Below, piece after piece: positions 6,448 through 33,022 of a stretch of 37,668 nt of DNA. Under the pieces are notes generated by a model. The model was not told the DNA's origin and did not search any database. It saw nothing but the letters and a program-made list of their open reading frames with translations. Position 1 is the stretch's first letter. Every line of letters starts with the position of its first letter. Source of the DNA: Myxococcota bacterium (GTDB lineage Bacteria > Myxococcota > XYA12-FULL-58-9 > JALHOP01); assembly GCA_041288095.1 (NCBI GenBank), contig JBGGMJ010000100.1:1-37668 (forward strand), read 5' to 3'. The position numbers and the translations under genes are program-made.

Positions 6448-8007
6448 TCAACCGAGACGCACCCACGCGCTGGGCTCGAGCTTCGAGAGCTCGCCGCCGA
6501 GGAGGCTCTGAACCGCCGCGGAGAGAGCAGCCCAGACCGGCTCGTCGCTCGCCCAGAGGACGGTGGTTGGGGCGTCATCGACTGTGTCGACCGCCACGGC
6601 GATGCGGGCCGCGAGGGGAAAGAGGGCGCGGTCGATCGCCGCGGCGTCCATGGTGACCGAGGCGCCGGCGATGCTCACCTCGAAGTCGCTGTCTTCGGCG
6701 TTGCGAGCCAGCTCGACTTGCTTCGCGAGGGCTTGGCGCAGTGATGGATCGTCGTCGACGTCGATGCCGTGATCCTTGAGCAGGGTCCGCGCGGTCGCTG
6801 CCTGCACCGCCGCGTCCGCGTCCCAGATACCGCAATCGCCCGCCGCGACGTAAGCATCGCGTCTCCCATCGCGGACACGTCCGACACGCGTCTCCACGCC
6901 GCTCACGGCGATGACGACCGCGTTGTCTTGGCTGACGCGCGCGGCCAGCGCCACGATGTCGTCCACGAACTCGAGGCTGTCGTTGCGGTCGAAAGCGGCG
7001 CGTAGCTCGGCGTCGATCGCGGCCGAACGGCTCGCCGGCAAGATGACGCGAAAGACCGGGGCTCTTCCGATGTGGTCGGCGTACGCTTGCAAGGTGTGGC
7101 GCGCCGCGGCCGCGGCAATCTCCGTCAACGCCACCGGCGTGCCCTGAACGGCGAGGGCAGGGCGACCGTTGTCGTCGGCGACCAGCGTGAGGCCGAGCTT
7201 GTTCGCGAAGAGCTGGACCCGCGCGCTTCGCCGGGTGTCCGCCCAAGCAAACAGGCCGGGCACGGCGAGCCCGTCGCCACCGATGGCGAGAGTGCTGTCG
7301 GTCATGCCGAGCGTCAGCGCCAGCTTGCGCTCGTCGAAACGGTCGGTCGGTCTGCCTTCGTTCGGCATCGACAGGGTGGCGAGAATGCTCGGGCCCGCGA
7401 GGTCGAAGATGACGTGAGGCGCCGCCTTCGCCTGGGCCTTCGGACGCGAGATCTCGACCGCCGGCTCGTCGAGCGTCAGCGGTAGGTCGAGCTCGAGGAG
7501 TGGCTCGCTCGCGGGCTTGTCGATTGCCTCCGCGAGGCCGGCGAGCAGCGATTCTTCTTCGTCGGCGCCGAGCTCGGCCAGTACCGTCTTGTTCGCTCTA
7601 GCGGACGCTTTGGGCTTCGCAGGCGCCGCGACCGACTTACGCGGCGCGCGCTCGCCCTCGCCGCGCGTCTTGACGATGTGGGTGACGAGATCCTCCGATT
7701 GCGGATCGAGGTCGACGAACTCGATGCCCATGCCCGGCGGCGAGTCCGGCTCCTTGGCGTCGGCGGCGCCCCGTGCCCAGCGGACGACGCCGGTGCCGCG
7801 GAAGATGCGGCTGTCGTCCTTGAGTCGGTACTCGAAGCGGACGCGGCTCCCGACCGGCGCCGGGTCGCGGGCGCGAATGAACAAACCCGTTCGCGAGACG
7901 TTGATCGAGAAACGCTCCACGAAGGTGTCGCGGTCGGGGTACTGGAGCTGCACCTTCAGCGTCACATCGACGCGTTGGTTACCCCGTTTTTGCGCGGAGT
8001 CGGTCAC
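6448..8007 (-). CDS. TIGR02266-type PilZ domain protein fused to a degenerate Hsp70/DnaK-like nucleotide-binding domain
   Basis: N-terminus has RGNQR, NVSRTGLFI, GVVRW and PPGMGIEF (PilZ). C-terminal part has DnaK-like remnants: VIFDLAG, LTEIAA...YADHIG...VILPA, KDHGIDVDDDPSLRQALAKQVELAR. Confidence 0.8.
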   Translation of the reverse strand: MTDSAQKRGNQRVDVTLKVQLQYPDRDTFVERFSINVSRTGLFIRARDPAPVGSRVRFEYRLKDDSRIFRGTGVVRWARGAADAKEPDSPPGMGIEFVDLDPQSEDLVTHIVKTRGEGERAPRKSVAAPAKPKASARANKTVLAELGADEEESLLAGLAEAIDKPASEPLLELDLPLTLDEPAVEISRPKAQAKAAPHVIFDLAGPSILATLSMPNEGRPTDRFDERKLALTLGMTDSTLAIGGDGLAVPGLFAWADTRRSARVQLFANKLGLTLVADDNGRPALAVQGTPVALTEIAAAAARHTLQAYADHIGRAPVFRVILPASRSAAIDAELRAAFDRNDSLEFVDDIVALAARVSQDNAVVIAVSGVETRVGRVRDGRRDAYVAAGDCGIWDADAAVQAATARTLLKDHGIDVDDDPSLRQALAKQVELARNAEDSDFEVSIAGASVTMDAAAIDRALFPLAARIAVAVDTVDDAPTTVLWASDEPVWAALSAAVQSLLGGELSKLEPSAWVRLG

Positions 8008-12471: not shown

Positions 12472-13853
12472 AAGCGCTCTTTCTCATCGCGCCGCTGCTG
12501 TGCGGATTCACCACCATGCGGGTTGGTACCACCGGCGGCTCGGTCAAATGGGCCGGCGCCAGCGTCGTTTTTTACGTCGATGCGAGTGGTATCAACAGCA
12601 TGCCCGGCGACTCGGACATCGCGGCTGCCTTCCAAGCCATGGAGGCTTGGAGCACCGTGCCGTGCTCGAGCTTCCGCTTCGTCAACGGTGGCACCACGAC
12701 GGGCGACCCCGGACAGACGATTCGCTTCGTGCACAGCGCGGGCAGTTGGCCTTCCGCCGGCGGCGTCGTTGCCTACACCGCGTTCGAGAATAGCGGCGCC
12801 GACATCACCAGGGCGGACATCTTCGTCAACGACTTCGAGTTCACCTGGTCGCGGGCCGGCGATCTGCGCTCCTACGATCTACAGTCCGTTTTAACGCACG
12901 AGCTCGGCCACGCCCTGGGTTTGCAGCACAGCGCTGACCCGACCAACAGCATGTATTGGCGCGGCACCAAGGGGAGCACGTTCTTTCGAACGCTCTCCGC
13001 TGACGACAAAGCGGGTCTTTGTTACCTCTATCCCGTGAGCTCGGGGCCGTGTGACGGTAACGAGGACTGTCCGATCTTGAGCAACGGTGATGACGCGGGC
13101 GTGTCCACTGTCTGCTCCGGCGGGTCATGTAGCGCGGGCACGCGTGGTTATGGCGAGGATTGCTTGGGCAACGCGGGCTGTGCCAGCGCTGTCTGCGCGC
13201 GCTTCGATGGCGCCGACGCGACCGTGCAGGTTGCCCCCGGCTTGTGCAGCCAGGCGAGTTGTCCCTGCCCCAATGGAGACGCCTGTGCCGGCGGCGTCTG
13301 CGCTCCGCGCGGCGCTGCGTGCAACTCCGCGACCTGTGAAGCGGCAACCACTACGAACCTGAACGACTACTGCATGGTTGGCCTGGACGGGACCTTCGAA
13401 TGCATCGACGTTTGCGTCGCGAGCAGCTGCGGCCCATCACCGGCCGAGTGCTTCCAGCCGGTAGACGTCGGTGACCCGGGTCGTTGCCGCACACCCGGTC
13501 CCAAGCCGGTTGGCGACCCGTGCACCGCGCCCAGCGAATGCGCGACCTACATCTGCGGCGTCGGCCTCGACGGCGTTTCCACGTGCGCCGCGCCCGACGA
13601 AGTCGTCGATCCCCCAGACCCACCTCCGGACACAGGGGGCCAACCCGACGGCGGTGACCCGAGCGGTGGCGACACCGGCGGCGATGGAATCGTCCAACCC
13701 GCTGATTCCGACGACACCGATCCTTCAGATCCTGGCAATTCCGTCGATGGGGGTTGCGCCGCCTCCAGTCCGAGCTTTGCATTGATGATGGGGGCGATTG
13801 TGGTCGTACTTTTCGCAGTCCAACGGACCCGGATTGTACGTAGAATCTCCTAG
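12468..13853 (+). CDS. Matrixin (M10-like) zinc metalloprotease with Cys-rich repeats and MYXO-CTERM-like anchor
   Basis: HELGHALGLQH zinc motif, Met-turn NSMY and LSADDKAGL..LY. Then a Cys-rich region, a Pro/Asp/Gly linker and a GGC + hydrophobic helix + Arg-rich C-terminus. Confidence 0.92.
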   Translation: MKALFLIAPLLCGFTTMRVGTTGGSVKWAGASVVFYVDASGINSMPGDSDIAAAFQAMEAWSTVPCSSFRFVNGGTTTGDPGQTIRFVHSAGSWPSAGGVVAYTAFENSGADITRADIFVNDFEFTWSRAGDLRSYDLQSVLTHELGHALGLQHSADPTNSMYWRGTKGSTFFRTLSADDKAGLCYLYPVSSGPCDGNEDCPILSNGDDAGVSTVCSGGSCSAGTRGYGEDCLGNAGCASAVCARFDGADATVQVAPGLCSQASCPCPNGDACAGGVCAPRGAACNSATCEAATTTNLNDYCMVGLDGTFECIDVCVASSCGPSPAECFQPVDVGDPGRCRTPGPKPVGDPCTAPSECATYICGVGLDGVSTCAAPDEVVDPPDPPPDTGGQPDGGDPSGGDTGGDGIVQPADSDDTDPSDPGNSVDGGCAASSPSFALMMGAIVVVLFAVQRTRIVRRIS

Positions 13854-13872
13854 GGACGTTCGAGCTGTACCA

Positions 13873-14454
13873 ATGACCAAACCCAAGGGCCCTTCATTCG
13901 TCGAGCGCGTCCGAGAAGACGCGAGTCGCTACTTGCAGGAGCTGCTCGTCGAGAACGAGCGCCTGCGCGCCGATTTCGTCACCGTCCAGGAGGAGATCAG
14001 CGGCCTCGCGAACCTGTTCGTCGCGGTCTCGAGCGTCACCGGCACGCGCGACCGGGCCAGGATCGTGTCGGCGATCGAAGAGGTCGTGGTGAACATCGTC
14101 GGCTCGGAAGAGGTCGCCATCTTCGCGCTCGACGGCAAGAGCCTGACCCTCGTCTCGTCGGTCGGCGTCCCGGCGGACGAGTTCAAGCGCGTGGAGCTAG
14201 GGAGCGGGGTCATCGGCCAGGTCGCTCAATCCGGCGAAGCTTACATCCCGCTCGAAGACGACGTCCCGCGCGAGAGCTGTGCCGGGCATCCCGTGAACGC
14301 ATGCGTGCCGCTCACGGTGGATGGCGTGGTCACCGGTGTCATCGCGGTCTTCCGCCTCCTGCAGCAGAAACCCCGCCTCACCGAGAGCGACGTCGAGCTG
14401 CTGCGCTTGCTCGGGACGCATGGCGGCGCTTCGCTCGCCTGCGCCCGGAGCTGA
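13873..14454 (+). CDS. Stand-alone GAF domain protein with N-terminal coiled coil
   Basis: LANLFVA...IEEVVVNIVGSE..AIF...GSGVIGQVAQSGE...ACVPLTVDGVVTGVIAVF...SDVELLRLLG. ATG 13873 was chosen because the longer start overlaps the upstream gene. Confidence 0.88.
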   Translation: MTKPKGPSFVERVREDASRYLQELLVENERLRADFVTVQEEISGLANLFVAVSSVTGTRDRARIVSAIEEVVVNIVGSEEVAIFALDGKSLTLVSSVGVPADEFKRVELGSGVIGQVAQSGEAYIPLEDDVPRESCAGHPVNACVPLTVDGVVTGVIAVFRLLQQKPRLTESDVELLRLLGTHGGASLACARS

Positions 14455-14463
14455 GCGCGGCGC

Positions 14464-14760
14464 TCAGGACGCTTTCGCGGCCTTCTTCTTGTGCTCCATC
14501 TGATCGAGCCGCTTGGCGATCGTCTTCAGCTTGGCGTTCAGCTCGGCGACATCCTTGGTCGTCACGATCTGGAGGGAGGCGAGGATGCGGCCGACGACAT
14601 CTTCTACGCGGCGCTCGACCTCGTCGCGCTTGTCATGGATGAAGCTGGTGGCGCTACGGACCAGGCCCGCTTCGGTATCGAGCAGTGCCTTGGCCTGCTT
14701 CTGAACCTGCTGCAACCACTCCTCGGCACGCTCACGCGCGGCGTTCGCTGTCAGAGCCAT
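14464..14760 (-). CDS. Phasin-like / polyhydroxyalkanoate granule-associated small helical protein
   Basis: VERRVEDVVGRILASLQIVTTKDVAELNAKLKTIAKRL resembles PhaF/PhaI-type phasins. GGGAGG Shine-Dalgarno lies 7 nt before the ATG. Confidence 0.65.
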   Translation of the reverse strand: MALTANAARERAEEWLQQVQKQAKALLDTEAGLVRSATSFIHDKRDEVERRVEDVVGRILASLQIVTTKDVAELNAKLKTIAKRLDQMEHKKKAAKAS

Positions 14761-14810
14761 CGGATAGCCTCCCTGTTCACTCGGTTTGAGCTTGTCCAAC
14801 CACGCCCAAA

Positions 14811-14827
14811 CTAACGCGATGCGTTAG
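14811..14827. promoter_or_regulatory. 7-3-7 palindrome in divergent intergenic region, possible operator
   Basis: ctaacgc-gat-gcgttag, about 50 bp upstream of the phasin-like start. Confidence 0.35.
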
Positions 14828-14946
14828 GGAAAGAAAGGGGGCACGTGCGCGATCTGAGGGGGCTGATTACTATTCGAACCCGAGCGATCGTTGAGTGGGT
14901 AAGTAGGTGCATGTGGGTGTGGCTTTGCCCTTCCCACTGGTGGGTG

Positions 14947-15155
14947 GGGCGTATATGGAGGCGCCCGGTCGGTGACGAAGCAACTTTGGCCCTGGCTCTG
15001 CCGAGAACAAAGTCGTCACTGATAATGGGCGGGGTTCTGCCCATCCTTGAGAAGCGCAGGCTGTCCGATAGCGTCCAACGCTCAAGCCTGCGGGAAACGG
15101 TGCTCGAGAGAAGGTCTAAACGAGCTCCGTACGGCGCAGCCGCTACCGGATGCGC
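14947..15155 (+). ncRNA. Candidate structured RNA / 5' leader (six consecutive stem-loops), family not recognised
   Basis: Stems: 14947-14952/14961-14966; 14968-14978/15013-15023; 15025-15032/15037-15044; 15055-15062/15085-15092; 15097-15106/15121-15130; 15134-15138/15151-15155. G-U pairs form on the + strand. Confidence 0.45.
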
Positions 15156-15236
15156 AAAGTAACCAAGGCTGTTCGAAGTGATGCGCGCTCCATGGTGTGC
15201 ATAGGCGTAGCACTCGAATCGTCCATAGGTGGTAGA

Positions 15237-16421
15237 ATGAAGAATGAAGTCACACATGCCCCTGCATCGCAGAAGCGTTCGGCCCAGGCCGACCGCGACG
15301 GCGCTGCACGGAGCCTGCGCCGCCAAGGGCGTGACCTTCATTCCAGCCCCTATGCGACCCCTGCCTGGGGTAACAACGCAACGCTTCGCGATACCGTCGT
15401 AGAAGCCCGTAATCTCACGCACGACACCCTGCTGGACCTCCAGCCGCTCATGCCGATGGCCGCCGATGACGACGTCACCGAGCTCGATATGCCGGTGCTC
15501 GCACGACCCGCCACGCGCCAGCCCAAAGACAAAAAGCGCATGACGGCCAAGAAGTTACGGGCCGCTCCGGCGCTCGAGCACACGCCGCGCCGCATCAAAG
15601 CGCACACCGTCGCAAACCCGGTGCTGAACGGTGTTGCCCGGGAGCGCTTCGCCAAGGCCCAGACGGTCACCGCCATGGCCAAGGCACCGGAGCTCTCGCT
15701 CCTCCAAGGCCTTTTCTCGGTGAAGACGCTTGGCCGCCTCGCGGTGGCTGCCGTCGCGTTGGTCGTGGCGTTGCACCCGACGACCCGCGCCGTTGCCGAG
15801 AACGTGGTCAGCTCTCTGAGCGAAGACGCGTCGATGGTCGCTCTGAGCGATCCGCGCGACCCCAAGGAGTTCGTCTCCGACCTCGCGATCGTCATGCCGC
15901 GGCCGACCATCGTGTTGACGCGCCAGGACGCGGTGGCCCAGGAGCTCCTCAAGTTCTCGCGCACCATGTCGACGCAAGACGTCCTGCGTACGGCCCAGGC
16001 CATCAGCGAAGAGGCCGAGCGCCTGGGTTACGACCCGCTTCTCTTGCTCGCGCTCATCCACATCGAGTCGTTCTACGACCACCTTGCTTTGTCGCCAGTG
16101 GGCGCCGAGGGCCTGATGCAGCTCATGCCGCCCACCGCCGAGTGGATGGCCGGCCGTCTGCAACTGCGCTGGGACCAGGGTCACACGTTCGACCCGGTGC
16201 TCAACGTTCGCCTGGGCAGTCAGTACCTGGCCTACCTGCACCGCGAGTTCGGCCGCATGGATTATGCGCTTACAGCGTACAACCGGGGCCCACACGCCAC
16301 CCGGTACCTGGTCGACCGTTTTGGCCGCTTGCCGCCGCCGATCTACGAGTTCTATGCCGGCAAGGTCCTCGGCTACTACGAGAAGCTGAAGGCGATGTAC
16401 GGCAAGTTGCCGATGGGATGA
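15237..16421 (+). CDS. Lytic transglycosylase (SLT domain) with long N-terminal region and TM anchor
   Basis: LALIHIESFY (catalytic Glu), SPVGAEGLMQLMPPTA, DPVLNVRLGSQYL and ALTAYNRGP. TM segment LAVAAVALVVAL. Start uncertain: ATG 15237 follows AGGTGG, but the ORF is open from 15150. Confidence 0.9.
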   Translation: MKNEVTHAPASQKRSAQADRDGAARSLRRQGRDLHSSPYATPAWGNNATLRDTVVEARNLTHDTLLDLQPLMPMAADDDVTELDMPVLARPATRQPKDKKRMTAKKLRAAPALEHTPRRIKAHTVANPVLNGVARERFAKAQTVTAMAKAPELSLLQGLFSVKTLGRLAVAAVALVVALHPTTRAVAENVVSSLSEDASMVALSDPRDPKEFVSDLAIVMPRPTIVLTRQDAVAQELLKFSRTMSTQDVLRTAQAISEEAERLGYDPLLLLALIHIESFYDHLALSPVGAEGLMQLMPPTAEWMAGRLQLRWDQGHTFDPVLNVRLGSQYLAYLHREFGRMDYALTAYNRGPHATRYLVDRFGRLPPPIYEFYAGKVLGYYEKLKAMYGKLPMG

Positions 16422-16434
16422 TATCCTTCGGTTT

Positions 16435-19400
16435 GTGAAGGCCTACGCGAGCTTTCGAGAGCGCGCCCTCCACGAGAGCCAGCGCTACGGGGACGATCCC
16501 TACGTGTTTTTGCGCGAGCTCGTGCAAAACGCTCGGGACGCCGGCGCACGCCTCGTTCGGGTCAACGTGTCGGTCGAGGCCGGGCGCGCTCGCATCGTCT
16601 TCGAGGACGATGGCAGCGGCATGACCTTCAAGCACGCGAAGGGCTACCTCTTCCGGCTGTACGCCAGCAGCAAAGAGAACCAGGCTGATGCCGTCGGTCA
16701 CTTCGGCGTCGGCTTCTGGTCGGTGCTGCGCTGGACACCCGAGAGCTTGCGCATCGAGTCGCGCACTGGTGACTCCGAGGGAGCTACCGACGCCTGGGGT
16801 GTCGAGCTCGATGCGTCGCTCTCGAAGGTCACCGACGTGCGCTGCGCTTTGTCGTCCGGCGGGACGCGCATCGTCATGGAGCGCGCCACCCGGGACGACG
16901 ATCTCGTAAACCTCGCGCGGACGGTGCGCGAGCGCCTGGCGTACTACTGCCGCTACGTGCGGGTGCGCGGCGGCAAGGAACGCCTGCACCTCTGGTGCAA
17001 CGGCGAGCGTGTCGATCGCGAGCTCGACGTCGCGTCCGTCATGGAAGACAGCGGCAGCGAGGCCACGCTGGCGATGAGCTTCTCGAGCGCGGGTGCCGCC
17101 GGCATCGTTGCGCTCGCCGCGACGCCGAAGGTGCAGCTCTACGCACGCGGTCTCTTGGTGAGCGAAGCCACCGTGCTCGATGAGCTCGACGGTGCCGCTA
17201 GCGGCCGGCGTGACGGCTTCGGGACCAGCGGCCTCGCGCCGGTGGTCGTCCTCAACTCCGATCGGCTCGACGTCGTGTTGTCGCGACGCAAGGCACGCGA
17301 CAGTCGCGAGCTACGGCGTCTCATGCGCTTGGCGCGCGCGCGGCTCGATCGCTTGGTGAGCCATGCCGTCGACGGAGTCGTCGAGCGTAGCTTCCTCGAC
17401 AAGACGAGCGATGCCATCGCCGAGGGTGTGCGTGCCCTGGGTGGCGGTCTCGCCGTCGCGGTGCTCGCGGTTTGGCTTCTGGTCATTGCCGCCGGCGCCC
17501 TCGCGGCGCTCTTGTTGTGGCGCGGGCCGCAAGGTGGGGCAGGGGAGCGGCCGGTCATGACCGTCGTGCGTGGACCGACAGCGGCCGCCGCCGACGGCTA
17601 TCGCGGCGAGGCAGCTCCAGTGGTCGGTTCGAGCGACGTCGCCGCGCTCACCGGGGGCTCGCGTCCCGTCGGCAACATCGTTGGCTATGGCGGAGCGATC
17701 GTCGACGTCCCCGACACCTACGGGCCGACGTGGAGCTTCGGCTATCGCGGACCGTCGCGCGTCTTCTTCAAGGCCCTGACTCTCGACCGCTACGAGTCGG
17801 GGCACGGCTTCGTGCGGCGTGAGCTGCCGATTACCGGCCCCTATCAAGGCGTTGCCTGTGGCCGTGGCGCGCGCACCTGCATCGACGTCGTCACGCAAGT
17901 CGTCGCCAACGACACACCGTTCGTGCTGCCCGTGCCCACGGGCCATGGCGTGGTCGATCACAGCGTCACCATCGACGGCGCGCCGCAGGAGCTGTCCACC
18001 AACGCGGTTGGCGAGGCGCTCCTGCGTCTCGAGTCTGGGCGGCGCGGCACCCTGCGCTACCAGGTCGCGCCCGCGGCCGCTGCGGCGGAAAGCCCACCCT
18101 TGCCCGCGCCGCTCACTTTGGGAGAGCCCTGGGACAGCTTGCTCGCGCGCGCCGTGAAGCTGCCCGTACATCGCCGCGTGGAGATGGTGACGAGCACCGT
18201 CCGCGATACCATCCGCTATGACGTAACGCCGGTGACCGCCGCGATGTTCGCTCATGCGCACGGGGAATGGCATGCGCGCGTCATCGCCGTGGGCGCGGGT
18301 GACTGCGACGTCAAGAACGGCTTGAACGCATTGTTGCTCCGCCAGCTCGGCGTCGATGCGCGCCTCGCCATCGGCATCGCCGGCGAAGACGGCGCGGCGA
18401 GGCCTAGCCTGCACGCCTGGACCGAGTATCTTGCCGGTGGGCGCTGGCACGTGATCGATGCAACCGGCCAGCCCGCGGCCTTCGATGTCGCGGCGGAGCG
18501 CGCGAAGGAGCTCGCCATGCGCCGCGCGGGCGGCGACCCGGCCGTGGTCGCCGTGGGAGTCCCGAGCGCGGCTGATGCTCCGTCGCGCCGCAAAGGCGAG
18601 ACGCGGCACGAGCGCCGGACGGTCGTCTCCCCCGACGCGTCGTCGCGTGCCGAGCCGCCACCGACTCTGCCAGTCGCCGAGGCCATCAGCGCGCCGCAAC
18701 CGAGTCTTGCGATGTCTCCAGCCGCCACCGCGGCGCCTCCAGCCGAGCCACGGAGCCGCTGGCTCGCGCGCCTCGACGCATGGTTCGATCGCATCTATGC
18801 CGTCACCGAGACCGTCCCGCGGCGCGCCTCATGGGCCGCGATCGCCGCCATCGGCTTGCTCGCGAGCGTCATGGTCATCGCGCGCAGTCGCGTGCGTGAG
18901 CGCCTGGTGAACGACGGTCCGCGCGACTCGCGTCGCGAAGCCCTCGCCAAGATGGTTCACGATATGCTGACGCAGCCGCACGCTTGGCGTGGTGTCGGCA
19001 GAGCCTGGCACCAACGCCTGCTGCCGGTGTTGTCGGGCCGGCCGATGAGTCTCGAGGAAGCGCTGCGGCGCGCCCGCGACAATGTCCTGTTCGTGTCGCG
19101 GTCGCGCTCCAAGCTCGCCGACGCGGCGGCGCGCTGCGGGACACCGGTGCTCGACGCCGCCGACCCGTTCTTCGGCAAGGTCGTCGTGCCGCTGTTGCGG
19201 ACAGTCGATCTCGACAACATCGAGCCGCTCCTCGGCATGCCTGACACGCCGACGTCCCCGCACCGGGGTCTGACCCGCGCCAACGCGGTGCTCGCCGAGG
19301 CGAAGGCGGACGTGTGCTTCGTTTTGGCGGAGGCGCTGCACGATGCACCCCTGCGGGATGTCGACCTGACGCGGGTCCGTCTGCCCAAGGGCATCAGGGC

Positions 19401-19605
19401 GCCGCGTCGCTTCATCGCCGTCTCCCCCAGTCACCGCGAGGTCCGCGCCCGCCTCGAGAAGCTCGAGCGGGATCCCGAGCGCGGCGTGTTCATCTGGCTC
19501 GACTGGTCGGTCGAGCGCAGCGAGCTCCTCGCCGATCACACGAGCCGTGTACGTGAGTGCGCGGCCACCTATGCCGTCGACGTGCTCGGGGCTGGGGAAC
19601 GATGA
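16435..19605 (+). CDS. Hsp90/HtpG-like GHKL ATPase fused with membrane-flanked transglutaminase-like (Cys-His-Asp) domain
   Basis: GHKL motifs FLRELVQNARDAGA, EDDGSGM, SSK, GHFGVGFWS and GGTRI. TM ~17440-17520. TGase motifs GDCD, LLRQLGVDARLAIG, HAWTEY and WHVIDAT. Second TM ~18826-18882, followed by ~240 aa C-terminal region. Confidence 0.88.
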   Translation: MKAYASFRERALHESQRYGDDPYVFLRELVQNARDAGARLVRVNVSVEAGRARIVFEDDGSGMTFKHAKGYLFRLYASSKENQADAVGHFGVGFWSVLRWTPESLRIESRTGDSEGATDAWGVELDASLSKVTDVRCALSSGGTRIVMERATRDDDLVNLARTVRERLAYYCRYVRVRGGKERLHLWCNGERVDRELDVASVMEDSGSEATLAMSFSSAGAAGIVALAATPKVQLYARGLLVSEATVLDELDGAASGRRDGFGTSGLAPVVVLNSDRLDVVLSRRKARDSRELRRLMRLARARLDRLVSHAVDGVVERSFLDKTSDAIAEGVRALGGGLAVAVLAVWLLVIAAGALAALLLWRGPQGGAGERPVMTVVRGPTAAAADGYRGEAAPVVGSSDVAALTGGSRPVGNIVGYGGAIVDVPDTYGPTWSFGYRGPSRVFFKALTLDRYESGHGFVRRELPITGPYQGVACGRGARTCIDVVTQVVANDTPFVLPVPTGHGVVDHSVTIDGAPQELSTNAVGEALLRLESGRRGTLRYQVAPAAAAAESPPLPAPLTLGEPWDSLLARAVKLPVHRRVEMVTSTVRDTIRYDVTPVTAAMFAHAHGEWHARVIAVGAGDCDVKNGLNALLLRQLGVDARLAIGIAGEDGAARPSLHAWTEYLAGGRWHVIDATGQPAAFDVAAERAKELAMRRAGGDPAVVAVGVPSAADAPSRRKGETRHERRTVVSPDASSRAEPPPTLPVAEAISAPQPSLAMSPAATAAPPAEPRSRWLARLDAWFDRIYAVTETVPRRASWAAIAAIGLLASVMVIARSRVRERLVNDGPRDSRREALAKMVHDMLTQPHAWRGVGRAWHQRLLPVLSGRPMSLEEALRRARDNVLFVSRSRSKLADAAARCGTPVLDAADPFFGKVVVPLLRTVDLDNIEPLLGMPDTPTSPHRGLTRANAVLAEAKADVCFVLAEALHDAPLRDVDLTRVRLPKGIRAPRRFIAVSPSHREVRARLEKLERDPERGVFIWLDWSVERSELLADHTSRVRECAATYAVDVLGAGER

Positions 19606-21158
19606 CGACGCGCGACGCCAGGGAGCTGCTCTCGATCGACGTCACCGCCGAGATCAAGAAGCTCGGTACGCAGCAGCTGGCGACGCCGGTCGATGTCGTT
19701 GCCGCGGCGGCACGCATGACCATCGAGTGCGGGGCGCACGCTGTCGACGTGGTCACCCTGCGCTCCGGCACCAAGATCACGGCGCGTGGTGCGCGGATGC
19801 CGCTCGATGTGCATGCGCAGCTCGCGTGCATCCTCGATGCATCAGGGAGCAGCGACACTCGCCACGCGGCCCTGGTCGCCTGGGAGAACGACCGCCGTCT
19901 CGAGTGGCTCGCGGTCGTCTGCGCCGGTGACGTCGAGCTGCGTACGCAGTCCGAGGAAGGCACCGACGTGCTCGAGGTGCGTGACGCCGCCGGCCGCCAT
20001 CGCCGAACGAACGAGACCGGCGAGCCGCAAATGGTCATCGTCTTGCGCCGCACCCGCACCGGCGGCGATCTCGAACAGCTCACCCGCGTGTTCGCGTTCG
20101 CGCGCTTGCCGGTGACGGTCGACGGCCATCGGGTGAGCTTCGGGCTCGAGCTGCCCGAGGCGCTCATCGCCGTACCCATCGCGGGCGCGAGCTTCAACGG
20201 CGCCGTCGGTTTGCCGCGCGAGCCGAGCTTCGCCCGCACGACGCTGGTGCGCTCCGAGGTGGTGGACCGCGACGTGGTGACGAGCCCACTGCGCGGCCGC
20301 GTGCATGTCGCGGTGGTGAGTGCTCGCTCGCGCCTCCCCGACACCGCGGTCATCGAGCGCACGGTGATCGCGGCGCGTGATCAGCTCTACGACGAGCTCA
20401 AGGCGCGTTACGCGAAGCTCACCGGCGACGAGCGGGCAGCCGCCGCCGAGCTGCTCTTTCGCACCTGCGAAGAGCGCGGCGACACGGGCTTCCTCGATGA
20501 CGCGCGCATCATCGCGACGACGCGTGGCGACTTCGTGACCTTGACGACTCTGCGTGGCATGGCACGCGACGGCGTCTTGCTCGCGGCGGAGCCCGATCAG
20601 GTCGTCGACTCCGATCTCCGTGACATCGGGTTGCCGGTCTTGAGCCCTCGTGAGCGGGCCTTCATCACTCGCTTCGTCGGCCTGCGCTGCGTGACACCGA
20701 CCTATCGCAGCGCCGACGCACCGCTGCGCCGCCTGCGCCGCTGGTTGCGCGACGGTCTGCATGCGGCGAGCAAGAGCTTGGCGCAACGCGGCTTCGGGCT
20801 CGGCGAAGGCGCGGTGCTCGACGACGACGAGTTGCGTCCCGAGGAGCGTGTTTTCATGCTGGCGCTCACGGACCTCGTGGGGACCGGCCGCTTCCGTGTC
20901 CCAGGGACCTCGGTGGGTGAACGCGTGCAGATCCTGGCGACGTCGCGCGGGCGCTTGCCCGCGGCGGTGCGCCGTCGCCGCGACCGCTGCGTCGTCGCCG
21001 TGCCGCTGCGCAGCCTCCGTGGCGCGCGCTTGGTGCGGATGGTGGCTCGTGACCCCGCCACGTTGATCATCGCCACGACGTTGGTGTTCGGCGGTCAGGA
21101 TGGCTATGGCCGCGATCGCGGACGCGCTCGCGCCGCGCTCGTCAAGAACACACCCTAG
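19602..21158 (+). CDS. Degenerate (probably ATPase-dead) GHKL/Hsp90-like protein
   Basis: ATGA overlap with the upstream gene. N-terminus LSIDVTAEIKKLGTQQLATPVDVVAAAARMTIECGAHAVDV aligns by eye with the GHKL motif I region but lacks E/N. FARLPVTVDGHRV parallels LHLWCNGERV of the partner. Confidence 0.65.
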   Translation: MTTRDARELLSIDVTAEIKKLGTQQLATPVDVVAAAARMTIECGAHAVDVVTLRSGTKITARGARMPLDVHAQLACILDASGSSDTRHAALVAWENDRRLEWLAVVCAGDVELRTQSEEGTDVLEVRDAAGRHRRTNETGEPQMVIVLRRTRTGGDLEQLTRVFAFARLPVTVDGHRVSFGLELPEALIAVPIAGASFNGAVGLPREPSFARTTLVRSEVVDRDVVTSPLRGRVHVAVVSARSRLPDTAVIERTVIAARDQLYDELKARYAKLTGDERAAAAELLFRTCEERGDTGFLDDARIIATTRGDFVTLTTLRGMARDGVLLAAEPDQVVDSDLRDIGLPVLSPRERAFITRFVGLRCVTPTYRSADAPLRRLRRWLRDGLHAASKSLAQRGFGLGEGAVLDDDELRPEERVFMLALTDLVGTGRFRVPGTSVGERVQILATSRGRLPAAVRRRRDRCVVAVPLRSLRGARLVRMVARDPATLIIATTLVFGGQDGYGRDRGRARAALVKNTP

Positions 21159-22793: not shown

Positions 22794-24746
22794 TTGGCTC
22801 TGGAGAGCCCGGGTGACGGTCAGGTCGTGAATGCCGTGACCACGATGGAGAAACTCAGGCGCCTGGCCAAGAGAGCCGGCGACGGCGTGGCCATGCCTCG
22901 CGTGGGCTTCGTATTGCTGGGCATCATCGCGGTGTCGGGATGGCTGGCGGTCATTGGGTTCTCGCTCGAGCCGTACCCTTGGTTCCGCCCCTGGACCATG
23001 ACCTGGGAGCTCGCCGCCTGTTTCTGCCTCGGCGCGCTCGCCAGGACCCTGGCGTTCCGCGTTTTCCGCGCCGTCCGCATCGCCCTCGACTCCGCCTTCT
23101 ATGTTGCCGTCACCTTCATCTGGGGCGCGGTGCCGGCGGCGTGGCTCATCCTCTTGATCATCACCGCCGACGCCGCGGTCCGTGTGCTTCGCGGGCACGC
23201 CGGGGTAACCGGGGGCAGGCGTCGGTTGTGGTTCTCGCTGCTTGAGCTCGCGCAGACCGGAGCGTTACCCGCTCTCGTGCTCCTGCTCCTGTCGGCGGCC
23301 TTCGGCATCGACGAGTCTCAGCCGTACACCGACCGCGCCCTCATTGTCTGGCTGCCGATCTTCTCGCTCGCCTTTCTCGTGGTGCACTACTTCTTGGCGG
23401 GCGGCGCGCACTGGTTTCAAGGAGCGCGCTCGGCCAAGCTCTTTCGCGGCTTCTTCTTTCGCGTTGTCATCGCCGAGCTGACCCTGGTGCCGCTGTCGCT
23501 CGCCATGGTGCTCGACTACCTGCACCACGGGATGTTCTTCTTCCTGTTGCTCGGTTGCACCGCGCTGCTCTTCAACTGGATCTTCCGGCGCGCCGTCATC
23601 ACCAGCGAGAAGCTCGATGAGCGCGCCTCCGAGCTCGCGACCATCAACAACGTCGGCCGCATCCTCTCGTCGAGCCTCGAGCGGCGCACCTTGATCATGA
23701 ACATCGCGAGCGAGACCGTGCGTCTCGTCGGCAGCGCCTCGCGGTTCGTGCTCGGTGCCTACGATTCGCGCCACGAGAACATCGTCGTCGACGTTTTTCT
23801 GCGCGGAGAGGCGCTCGCGGTGGAGCGTCGTGCACAGCGCGGCCGGGCCCGCGTCGAGCCGGTGCAGCGCGGCATCGTCCCGCGTGGCCACGGCCTCACC
23901 GGCTGGGTCATGCAGAACCGCCGCCCGCTGCTTTTGTCGAACGTGCCGGAGATCGGCGCGAGCTACGTCACCGACGCGGCGGAGCTGCCGCCCTGCGCCT
24001 CATGGCTAGGCGTGCCGCTCACCATCTACGACGAGGTTTTCGGCGTCATGGCGGTCGAGAGCGATGCGCCGAACGCTTACACGGGAGATCACTTACGCAC
24101 GCTGATGATCATCGCCGACCACGCGGCGGTCGCGCTCGAGAACGCACGCCTCTACGAGCTCGCCACGGTCGACGGTCTCACGGGGTTGTACGTGCGCCGC
24201 TACTTCGACCAACGCTTGAACGAAGAATGGCGCCGCGGCACGCGCTACGGGCAGGAATTCTCGATCGGCATTCTCGACCTCGATCATTTCAAGAGGCTCA
24301 ACGACACGTACGGCCATCAAGCCGGTGATCAGGTGTTGCGCGGCGCGGCCACGGTGCTGCGCGACAACATGCGCGGCGCCGACATCGCCGGCCGCTATGG
24401 CGGAGAAGAGTTCGCGTTCATCTTGCCGCGCACGACGATCGCGGAGGCCAAGCACATGGCCGACCGTATCCGCGGCGACATCGAGGCAATGCGCGTCGTG
24501 GTCAATGGCGAGCGTCTGCACGTGACCTGCTCCATCGGGGTCGCGGGCTATCCTGAGTGCGGCGCTCCGGACTCGACCTCATTGCTCGCTTTCGCGGACC
24601 AGGCGCTCTACGACGCCAAATCCCAGGGCCGTAATCGCGTTCTCGCCGCGCCGCACACCGAAATCATGCCGCCGCGGGGTGTGACCACAGAGGAGCGCTT
24701 GCGCAGCGAAGCGGTGACCCAGGAGATCCTGAAGCCGGTTCAGTAG
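22794..24746 (+). CDS. Membrane-bound sensor diguanylate cyclase (multi-TM + GAF + GGDEF)
   Basis: About 7-8 hydrophobic segments, a GAF domain (GLTGWV...SWLGVPL..GVMAV), DGLTGL, DLDHFKRLNDTYGHQAGD, I-site RGAD and RYGGEEF. Start uncertain (possibly ATG 22845). Confidence 0.95.
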   Translation: MALESPGDGQVVNAVTTMEKLRRLAKRAGDGVAMPRVGFVLLGIIAVSGWLAVIGFSLEPYPWFRPWTMTWELAACFCLGALARTLAFRVFRAVRIALDSAFYVAVTFIWGAVPAAWLILLIITADAAVRVLRGHAGVTGGRRRLWFSLLELAQTGALPALVLLLLSAAFGIDESQPYTDRALIVWLPIFSLAFLVVHYFLAGGAHWFQGARSAKLFRGFFFRVVIAELTLVPLSLAMVLDYLHHGMFFFLLLGCTALLFNWIFRRAVITSEKLDERASELATINNVGRILSSSLERRTLIMNIASETVRLVGSASRFVLGAYDSRHENIVVDVFLRGEALAVERRAQRGRARVEPVQRGIVPRGHGLTGWVMQNRRPLLLSNVPEIGASYVTDAAELPPCASWLGVPLTIYDEVFGVMAVESDAPNAYTGDHLRTLMIIADHAAVALENARLYELATVDGLTGLYVRRYFDQRLNEEWRRGTRYGQEFSIGILDLDHFKRLNDTYGHQAGDQVLRGAATVLRDNMRGADIAGRYGGEEFAFILPRTTIAEAKHMADRIRGDIEAMRVVVNGERLHVTCSIGVAGYPECGAPDSTSLLAFADQALYDAKSQGRNRVLAAPHTEIMPPRGVTTEERLRSEAVTQEILKPVQ

Positions 24747-31594: not shown

Positions 31595-33022
31595 ATGACC
31601 TTTTCACCCACGCCAGCTGTCCAGCTGCGGACGGATAGGCCTACCCTCATTTCGGGGCCTGGGCCGGGATCCGTCGTGCGGCAGCACACGCTGCAGCCGG
31701 ACGAGACCTTGCGTCAGGTCGCGCAGCGCTATGGCGTCAGTGGGGCCGCGCTCCTGGCCGCGAACCCGCAGCTCGATTTCCAGAACGGGCTCTATGCGGG
31801 CATCACCATCAACATCCCGGCGCCAACCATCGCGCCGGTACCGGCGACGCGTCTGTCGCCGCGCTCGTTCGACGTTCCCGAATCCGCTTACGCTCCGAAC
31901 CCCGGGGTGCCGGCCGCGCCCGGGGCTTTGGCCCCTCCGGCCGCGCCTGGAGTGCAGCTCGGTCGCAGCCCACCGCGCACCTTCTTCGGCGATCCCAACA
32001 CCCGGGCGTTGCCACCGCAGCCCATGACCTGGCCACACCCCGAGCGACCGCTGCAGCTCGGCGCGCGCAATCCCGAGGTCGAGATCATCCAGCGCGCCTT
32101 GTGCCGCATCGGTTACGTGCTCCGTGTCGACGGCGAGTTTGGCGGCGCGACCGACGCGGCGATTCGTCACTTCCAGCAGCTCATGGGCCTTCCGGCCAAC
32201 GGGACGATGACGCCGCAGACCTGGTCGCGCTTGCGCAGCGCCATGGAAGCGATCCGCCAGCCGCAGCAAGTGCTGGTGAGCGCGAGCCGCGACGCGTTTA
32301 CGACCACGGACGAACGTAACGCCTACGACATCTTGCTCGCGCTTGCCTACGACGAACCCGGCAGCAACCAATCGTCCGACATGGGCATGCGCGAGCTCCT
32401 GCGCGTCATGCGTATCCAGGTCGGCACTCCGGTGAACATCACGCCCGAGCTGGTCACCGCGTTCGCGCGGCGGGCCATCGAGGTCGGCCTGCCACTGAAC
32501 GCGCAGGCCCTCGCGCCGCTCGACCCGATGCGCCTCGACACCTCGAGCGACCGCTTGAACTACAATCAGGCGCGCGCCGTGAGCGAGCTGTTCATCCGCA
32601 TGCTGCGCGGCTCACGCATCAACGACACCACCTACGACCGGCTCATCATCAGATACGCGCGCCAGTACAACCTGGAGCCGGAGCTGGTGAAGGCCTTCAT
32701 GGCCATCGAGTCGGACTTCAGTCCGAATCTGACCTCGAGCGCCGGCGCTCGGGGGCTCATGCAGGTCATGCCCGACACCGCGTCCTTCGTTGGCATGACG
32801 AGCACCACTGATCCCGAGCAGAACATCCATGCCGGCGTTCGCTACCTCGCCTATCTCTCGGAGCGCTTCGGAGGCGACCTCGTCTACATGGCCGCGGGTT
32901 ACAACTCGGGACCGAACCGCGTGGCGCGCAATGGTGGCGTGCCGCCCATCCAGGAAACCTACGACTACGTGCGACGATTCTTGGCGCACTATTCCTACTA
33001 TCGGCAACGCCCGGTGCGATGA
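31595..33022 (+). CDS. LysM + peptidoglycan-binding + lytic transglycosylase (SLT) protein
   Basis: LysM HTLQPDETLRQVAQRYGVS..LLAANP..I.IP; PG_binding_1 VEIIQRAL..IGY..VDGEFGGATDAAIRHFQ..MGL; SLT IESDF..SSAGARGLMQVMP..YNSGP..ETYDYV. Confidence 0.93.
   Translation: MTFSPTPAVQLRTDRPTLISGPGPGSVVRQHTLQPDETLRQVAQRYGVSGAALLAANPQLDFQNGLYAGITINIPAPTIAPVPATRLSPRSFDVPESAYAPNPGVPAAPGALAPPAAPGVQLGRSPPRTFFGDPNTRALPPQPMTWPHPERPLQLGARNPEVEIIQRALCRIGYVLRVDGEFGGATDAAIRHFQQLMGLPANGTMTPQTWSRLRSAMEAIRQPQQVLVSASRDAFTTTDERNAYDILLALAYDEPGSNQSSDMGMRELLRVMRIQVGTPVNITPELVTAFARRAIEVGLPLNAQALAPLDPMRLDTSSDRLNYNQARAVSELFIRMLRGSRINDTTYDRLIIRYARQYNLEPELVKAFMAIESDFSPNLTSSAGARGLMQVMPDTASFVGMTSTTDPEQNIHAGVRYLAYLSERFGGDLVYMAAGYNSGPNRVARNGGVPPIQETYDYVRRFLAHYSYYRQRPVR

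Follow-up and report, generated by a model that had tools for sequence, protein, structure and literature searches.

A 37,668-nucleotide (nt) stretch of DNA from a Myxococcota bacterium (GenBank assembly GCA_041288095.1, contig JBGGMJ010000100.1; hereafter, the window) carries three adjacent genes, which we call A, B, and C. The present study indicates with high confidence that B encodes an Hsp90-like GHKL ATPase interrupted by a first transmembrane segment (TM1), a TgpA-like transglutaminase module, and a second transmembrane segment (TM2), and that B and C together form a two-gene unit. C is a soluble, selectively maintained paralog of the Hsp90-like body of B over its full length, with a dead ATP site. 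Gene A, an SLT lytic transglycosylase gene that the original prediction had placed in the same system, is a lineage-specific neighbor, at most an add-on of the window's own sublineage.

Architecture of B

B occupies positions 16435–19605 of the forward strand (the strand of all features below unless stated otherwise) and encodes 1056 amino acids (aa) from a GTG start. Its first cytoplasmic part (aa 1–335, 16435–17439) comprises a Bergerat ATPase domain, a second, transducer-like domain, and pre-membrane helices. Within it, HATPase_c_3 of Pfam matches aa 26–115 (E 3.8e-11), and the NCBIfam model NF047352, for the sacsin-type N-terminal ATP-binding domain, matches aa 25–102 with 55.4 bits against a cut-off of 50. 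In an alignment of 67 B sequences (A4; the window and 66 of the loci described below), the GHKL residues E28, N32, D35, D58, G60, G62, G88, G91, and G93 are invariant (67/67), and B has the motif I (E-x3-N-x2-D), the motif II (D-x-G-x-G), and the Gly-rich G2 box of an active GHKL ATPase. The profile of this N-domain is closest to the N-domains of HtpG, Hsp90, Grp94, and TRAP1 (best E 2.8e-9), with weaker matches to MORC2 and MutL. The HSP90 family models did not recover B: PF00183 gave no match, and HtpG NF003555 and PRK14083 scored 30.4 bits versus 371 and 37.3 bits versus 455, respectively.

TM1 (aa ~336–362, 17440–17520; Kyte-Doolittle peak 2.8 over aa 328–365) leads into a predicted extracytoplasmic region (aa 366–796, 17530–18822), which consists of a variable linker (aa 366–430), a β-rich domain (aa 431–575), a transglutaminase core (aa 576–680), and a second variable linker, rich in Pro and Ala (aa 681–796). 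Transglut_core of Pfam matches aa 580–676 (E 1.5e-8), and the catalytic triad of C624, H660, and D675 (codons 18304–18306, 18412–18414, and 18457–18459) is invariant in all 67 sequences. By profile comparison the best counterpart of the region between the helices is the periplasmic part of Pseudomonas aeruginosa TgpA (6g49, E 1.9e-7). The two linkers are poorly conserved, range across the family from 37 to 102 aa (median 52) and from 31 to 200 aa (median 79), and draw 54% and 67% of their residues from P, A, S, G, T, and E. A conserved Cys pair is confined to the outside region (Cys475 in 56/67 and Cys482 in 55/67). TM2 follows (aa ~798–816, 18826–18882; hydropathy peak 2.16 over aa 797–820), and the chain ends in a C-terminal cytoplasmic domain (aa 821–1056, 18895–19602) that is homologous to the C-terminal half of C. 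Exactly two hydrophobic segments are present in 51 of the 67 family members. Pfam gave no match in the linker/β region, the mid domain, or the C-terminal domain of B.

These results bear out part of what had been claimed for this protein. The label "GHKL-transglutaminase" stands on the matches to HATPase_c_3 and Transglut_core; the Hsp90-like nature of the GHKL part agrees with the HtpG/Hsp90 N-domain matches of B and with the Foldseek matches of the C model described below; and the TgpA-like nature of the periplasmic part agrees with the 6g49 match. The proposed topology, in which the ATPase is cytoplasmic and the transglutaminase lies between two hydrophobic segments, is likewise what hydropathy predicts, so that B, like TgpA, would combine Transglut_core and a Cys-His-Asp triad between membrane helices, with the enzyme in the periplasm.

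C Is a Soluble Paralog of B with a Dead ATP Site

C (19602–21158, ATG start, 518 aa) gave no match in Pfam, NCBIfam, or PADLOC, and within the 27-sequence alignment used for its residue counts and its structural model, just one member touches HATPase_c (E 0.0047). Its relationship to B emerges from profile comparison: hhalign aligned C 20–291 with B 13–334 at 97.9% probability (E 4e-13, 263 columns; 98.3% in a separate run) and C 268–516 with B 819–1046 at 91.6% (E 8e-7, 212 columns; 82.5% and E 1e-5 in a separate run). The two matched stretches run in the same order along both proteins. Because C thus parallels both cytoplasmic parts of B, B is best read as a C-like, Hsp90-like protein that has been split by TM1, the TgpA-like domain, and TM2. 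A weak match of the C profile to MutL N-domains was also seen (E 0.015).

The AlphaFold (AF2) model of C has a mean confidence (pLDDT) of 83, and the best Protein Data Bank (PDB) matches found for it by Foldseek are full-length Hsc82, TRAP1, Hsp90, Grp94, and HtpG (E down to 2.4e-13). Superposition on the Hsp90 chains gives TM-scores of 0.40–0.45 over 620–680 columns, with root-mean-square deviations of 14–17 Å. While the fold is retained, the nucleotide pocket is degenerate and the motifs of an active GHKL ATPase are lacking: the equivalents of the Mg-binding Asn (N32) and of D35 are kept in 0/27 sequences, that of the adenine-contacting Asp (D58) in 7/27, and that of the second motif II Gly (G62) in 3/27. 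The designation of C as a dead GHKL protein is therefore upheld by profile comparison, fold, and motif counts alike. Hydropathy detects no hydrophobic segment in C. In the model a helical hairpin (helices 248–272 and 275–292) lies at the site of the B insert. The conserved positions are mostly N-terminal, with M1, D13, and K20 invariant and A90 and E95 nearly so.

B and C Are a Strictly Linked Pair

Loci were collected by scanning GTDB with each species represented by a single genome, and 367 stretches among the matches listed were confirmed by tblastn against B; because the search patterns were GHKL motifs, 367 is an upper bound for the size of the family. Counts out of 80 refer to the best 80 of these 367 stretches (loci L001 onward). 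B is broken by a contig end in 11 of the 80, which leaves 69 loci with a complete B. C was called at each locus with a clean profile of a further alignment (A2; E ≤ 2e-45). All-against-all clustering lumps B with C in one cluster and so cannot separate them, and a word-index search undercounts both families (29 and 10 matches).

B and C are a strict, translationally coupled pair. A separate C lies directly downstream of B on the same strand in 68 of the 69 loci with a complete B, and 42 of these 68 show a 4-nt overlap between the stop of B and the start of C, 4 show an 8-nt overlap, and 2 a 1-nt overlap; in the window the overlap is an ATGA at 19602–19605. The remaining locus, L025, has a single B–C open reading frame (ORF) of 1503 aa (L025:7977–12488), in which the C profile matches aa 972–1500 (E 1e-148) beyond a Pro/Arg-rich joint; this ORF has one hydrophobic segment above threshold and represents either a real fusion or an error in a metagenome-assembled genome (MAG). 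At L031 (7989–10100) the B ORF stops early, at 703 aa, and C begins 754 nt later, probably reflecting a frameshift, a pseudogene, or an assembly error. When longer relatives with C in fused form were sought, a single, irrelevant 1813-aa protein turned up (6% coverage), the want of others being weak evidence. Beyond B and C themselves no neighbor family occurs in more than 13 of the 80 loci, and the genes upstream and downstream of the pair are heterogeneous.

Both genes, together with A, are real genes under purifying selection. Relative to the three closest genomes (L001–L003), dN/dS is 0.09–0.10 for A, 0.08–0.19 for B, and 0.055–0.15 for C. The described layout of three co-oriented genes, with a 13-nt gap (16422–16434) between A and B and an ATGA overlap between B and C, agrees with the ORF coordinates. 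Promoter and terminator scans found nothing above chance (4 terminator-like sites versus 3.5 expected), and neither Rfam families nor tRNAs were found in the window.

The B–C family is a large one, carried on chromosomes and present in Myxococcota and Acidobacteriota. Record labels place 57 of the 80 loci in Myxococcota, 12 in Acidobacteriota, 2 in "Bdellovibrionota," 2 in "Pseudomonadota," and 1 in Fermentibacterota, with 6 unlabeled, and their cultured hosts include Enhygromyxa salina (L043), Paraliomyxa miuraensis (L055), and Nannocystaceae strain ST9 (L044). The window DNA itself is chromosomal and GC-rich (63–72% GC). Representatives (at 50% identity, 1.84 billion in all) that match the C family number 427 at E ≤ 1e-30, 881 at E ≤ 1e-10, and 1810 at E ≤ 0.001, and the best 150 are all 378–574 aa long; the B architecture also forms one Atlas cluster of 108 members. 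Relatives carry the database names "hypothetical protein," "ATP-binding protein," or "transglutaminase domain-containing protein." Two of the loci, L001 and L004, are titled "uncultured Bdellovibrionales," yet in the B tree their B sequences nest among Myxococcota rows, and their neighborhoods share gene order with both the window and a Myxococcota MAG; these bin labels look unreliable.

Gene A Is a Lineage-Specific Neighbor

Gene A (15237–16421, 394 aa) starts at an ATG preceded by GGTGG, with a longer ORF beginning at 15150. Its product is predicted to be a membrane-anchored SLT lytic transglycosylase, with a hydrophobic segment at aa 158–187 and an SLT domain at aa 255–356 (Pfam E 1.2e-21; 76.8 bits against a cut-off of 21.3). 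Because the NCBIfam equivalogs Slt70, MltC, MltF, EmtA, and BB0259 all scored far below their cut-offs, no named ortholog can be assigned, and Pfam found no match in the cytoplasmic tail of A.

A same-strand SLT gene lies upstream of B in only 6 of the 80 loci (adjacent in L001–L004 and L015, and ~2.2 kb away in L013), and a sensitive search of the flanks as a whole brought up an SLT-like ORF in only 8 of the 80. The ORF immediately upstream of B encodes an SLT protein in 5/71 loci; the same position is otherwise taken by an IgGFc_binding protein in 11/71, ABC-F in 3, Kelch in 2, and, in the rest, by genes that all differ. The SLT-linked rows group in one part of the B tree (FastTree, N-terminal region), requiring 2 changes, and 0 of 500 shuffles were as low. 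AlaRS, M10 peptidase, GAF, GGDEF, and Lon genes are likewise collinear with the window in the SLT-linked genomes, and, because the whole neighborhood is collinear in that sublineage, the adjacency of A and B is explained by inherited gene order. The claim that the lytic transglycosylase is a component of the system thus finds no support in the neighborhood survey, where upstream SLT is confined to one sublineage; since the gene is not syntenic elsewhere, the two-gene module of B and C remains. A second lytic transglycosylase gene (LysM, PG_binding_1, and SLT; 31595–33022) is located 10 kb downstream within the same window, so SLT genes are not rare in this genome.

Upstream of A, the 447 nt between its start and a small divergent gene (14790–15236; equivalents at L001:6366–6805 and L002:6354–6802) are 85–87% identical among the three closest genomes, versus just 56–72% at the third codon positions of A, B, and C. 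The region contains 6–11 indel columns, not in threes, and was matched by nhmmer in those three genomes only, with no Rfam family. Its predicted fold has a minimum free energy z-score of -1.94, with compensatory changes in 4 of 129 predicted pairs among 3 sequences only. Candidate interpretations are a conserved leader, a small RNA, or a region dense in regulatory sites. The small conserved ORF that diverges from the SLT gene (14464–14799, reverse strand) matches the Pfam Phasin model with 31.7 bits against a cut-off of 28.8 (E 1.8e-7), and its L001 copy contains a 67-column alignment gap.

Genomic Context

The other genes of the window encode NAD-GDH, PilZ, PDZ, AlaRS, M10, GAF, GGDEF-GAF, cupin, Lon, HisRS, thioredoxin/DsbD, and FeoB proteins, in addition to the second SLT protein. 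Neither an AAA+/MoxR nor a DUF58 domain was found among the window ORFs, 71 upstream ORFs, and 61 downstream ORFs, as the original prediction had it. No defense-type domain was found among the neighbor ORFs scanned, many of which lack any Pfam match, and none of 72,556 plasmids and 50,697 phages gave a tblastn match to B. The PADLOC models of TmtA match B at aa 6–99 (best E 4.2e-15), a match that covers 91 of 1486 profile positions (59–149) and is thus far from full length. The B tree groups largely by taxon.

An IgGFc_binding ORF of 530–760 aa immediately precedes B, in the same orientation, in the 11 loci mentioned above (L020, L028, L029, L030, L034, L043, L045, L051, L077, L078, and L079), whose hosts are labeled Nannocystaceae, Polyangia, or unclassified Myxococcales and include Enhygromyxa; a BLAST cluster of 13 loci is the same family. 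This gene is a second lineage-specific neighbor and possibly encodes a secreted protein. Cyclic-nucleotide signaling genes flank the module in the window, namely PilZ (6448–8007, reverse strand), GAF (13798–14454), and a GAF-GGDEF cyclase (22794–24746). The downstream ORF of 61 loci encodes GGDEF in 2, PilZ in 2, and a cNMP-binding protein in 1, too few for an association.

Discussion

Hsp90 and other GHKL ATPases are dimeric clamps, and in GyrB and Topo VI-B a long helix that follows the transducer domain relays the ATP state. By analogy with these systems, we propose that B and C act as a clamp in which the hairpin is the coupling element. Specifically, the two proteins would join into an Hsp90-style heterodimer, an asymmetric clamp lying at the membrane's inner face in which a single ATP site works. 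The B chain would leave the cytoplasm after its second domain via TM1, form the TgpA-like domain outside, return via TM2, and complete its Hsp90-like body in the cytoplasm. Through a hairpin turned into membrane helices, binding of ATP or of a client by the clamp could then affect how active or exposed the tethered enzyme is, or where it is positioned; the enzyme itself would cross-link or cleave envelope proteins. The parts of this model differ in strength. That B and C form a heterodimer is slightly favored over its negation, judging from what is known of related ATPases, and the notion of an asymmetric B–C clamp that connects ATP in the cytoplasm with a transglutaminase or peptidase tethered in the periplasm seems to us evenly balanced. 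Control of the periplasmic activity by ATP is put forward more tentatively, as something that may well prove otherwise. We consider it rather unlikely, though worth stating, that the cycle of a clamp made of one active ATPase and one pseudo-ATPase moves the two-helix hairpin and so switches the periplasmic enzyme, which would make B–C the first Hsp90-family machine to work across a membrane; in that case the two-helix hairpin would have grown from the helical hairpin that follows the transducer-like domain. The earlier suggestion that an Hsp90-like clamp replaces a MoxR/vWA module and controls the periplasmic enzyme may apply in the same conditional sense.

Several observations weigh against this model. 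The topology is predicted from hydropathy, from homology, and from a positive-inside bias that is weak, and the putative continuity of the C-like hairpin with the membrane helices of B derives from the alignments and the C model only. The homology between the C-terminal halves of the two proteins is moderate, with probabilities of 82.5–91.6%. The B–C fusion is found in just 1 of 69 loci. The last ~80–120 residues are absent from 4 of the 68 C proteins (L011, L012, L023, and L063), which end at profile position 395–439 of 516, and a matching loss in B was sought and not found, the C-terminal domain of B being full at these four loci. Because the catalytic domain hangs on two flexible, low-complexity linkers, rigid mechanical coupling is disfavored; the target of control may instead be the exposure, reach, or partner binding of the tethered enzyme rather than the geometry of its active site. 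Finally, sequence cannot separate cross-linking from peptidase chemistry.

Alternatively, B may be a homodimeric, membrane-anchored, Hsp90-like chaperone or enzyme and C a separate regulator, decoy, or adaptor that, for instance, keeps B monomeric or delivers clients. Hsp90-family proteins are homodimeric, four C proteins lack the C-terminal helices while their B partners are unchanged, and the conservation of C is mostly N-terminal rather than spread along a whole dimer face. However, C retains an entire Hsp90-like fold that is collinear with both cytoplasmic parts of B, and strict linkage, translational coupling, and a fusion, even a single one, fit a stoichiometric partner, so we regard the homodimer as unlikely. 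A flow of information in the opposite direction appears very unlikely. In that reading an envelope ligand would be sensed or captured by the periplasmic domain, and the Hsp90-like ATPase pair would pass the signal on to clients in the cytoplasm. A two-helix hairpin could carry signals either way, and a few loci have cyclic di-GMP or cNMP genes close by (GGDEF 2, PilZ 2, and cNMP-binding 1 of 61), as does the window (PilZ and GGDEF). However, invariance of the triad in 67/67 sequences is what one would expect if the domain is an enzyme and not a sensor, the linkers, being flexible, hinder this direction too, and the signaling neighbors are few and not conserved.

The two remaining alternatives assign the module a different composition or purpose. 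An SLT lytic transglycosylase could work with B and C in three-gene envelope remodeling, at least in the lineage of the window, where A is co-oriented with B across a gap of 13 nt, where terminator-like sites do not exceed chance, where SLT is still found upstream of B at 37–45% B identity (L004, L013, and L015), and where the SLT domain and the outside domain of B would both act in the periplasm. The scarcity of SLT at other loci (upstream in 6/80, anywhere in the flanks in 8/80, and immediately upstream in 5/71), the restriction of the SLT loci to a part of the tree in which AlaRS, M10, GAF, GGDEF, and Lon are also collinear, and the presence of a second SLT gene in the window nevertheless make this a distinctly improbable arrangement. 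A role in defense, also raised in the original prediction, would make B–C an anti-phage or conflict module akin to the Tiamat-type GHKL systems, with the transglutaminase-like peptidase as its effector. The TmtA match and the self-contained character of a two-gene unit amid varying neighborhoods are compatible with such a module, but the likeness to TmtA ends with the GHKL N-terminus and C has no PADLOC match. Neighborhood context and the plasmid and phage searches lend the idea no support: the neighbors in the window are of housekeeping type (AlaRS, HisRS, Lon, GDH, and FeoB) or signaling type, the plasmids and phages gave no match, the B tree follows taxonomy to a large extent, and the catalytic domain is predicted to face the periplasm. 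On these grounds a defense role is hardly to be expected.

The known systems to which B–C can be compared each share part of its design. TgpA (PA2873) has a periplasmic part with transglutaminase activity in vitro and is encoded by a gene essential in P. aeruginosa, according to PMC3507681; TgpA is predicted to have six helices, of which five belong to a DUF3488 domain at the N-terminus, and its gene is co-transcribed with PA2875 and PA2874. Like TgpA, B would be an inner-membrane protein with a large periplasmic Transglut_core domain and a Cys-His-Asp triad. Unlike TgpA, which has no ATPase domain, B has one helix on each side of the outside domain, an Hsp90-like ATPase on the same chain, and a pseudo-ATPase partner, and it lacks DUF3488, with no Pfam match and a single hydrophobic segment ahead of the outside domain. 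Operon partners of the type of PA2875 and PA2874, which we take to be MoxR- and DUF58-type proteins, were not seen near B. In its N-domain profile, the fold of its partner, and its complete motifs, B resembles the Hsp90 family (HtpG, Hsc82, TRAP1, and Grp94), from which it differs in being split by two membrane helices and an extracytoplasmic enzyme, in having a partner with a dead ATP site, and in escaping the family models. We know of no membrane-spanning member of the Hsp90 family, and none was found in a full-text literature search. Pairs of the MutLα type likewise consist of paralogous GHKL subunits with unequal ATP sites; in contrast to these and to Topo VI-B and GyrB, B–C has no DNA-handling domains and would deliver its output through a hairpin in the membrane and an enzyme in the periplasm.

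In the LapD–LapG system, the cyclic di-GMP receptor LapD sequesters a separate, soluble, periplasmic transglutaminase-like cysteine protease. What is proposed here for B would be analogous, in that a cytoplasmic nucleotide state would control a periplasmic enzyme of the transglutaminase superfamily, whereas in B the ATPase and the enzyme are on one chain. A LapG-type protease is cited in PMC10318531. Tiamat is reported to be an ATPase-DNase (preprint 10.64898/2026.09.30.754977), and the likeness of B to sacsin and TmtA ends with the Bergerat fold, B having no DNase region. PMC3710099 and PMC7159879 mention transglutaminase-like peptidases whose architectures differ and which have no bearing on B–C. 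The full-text search, whose coverage stops short of subscription journals and supplements, returned no description of the B–C architecture; we found none in print, and the two families were unannotated before.

Thus far, Hsp90-type ATPases have been studied as soluble clamps, and TgpA-like periplasmic enzymes have lacked an understood mode of control. The B–C chimera provides a system for asking how a GHKL clamp can be connected to both a membrane and an enzyme outside the cytoplasm, a route to what TgpA-like enzymes act on, and a natural case of asymmetric, one-site Hsp90-like function, and through it two unannotated families gain a name and a testable role. If the clamp were indeed to work across the membrane, the energy or client state of the cytoplasm would control the covalent remodeling of envelope proteins in Myxococcota and Acidobacteriota.

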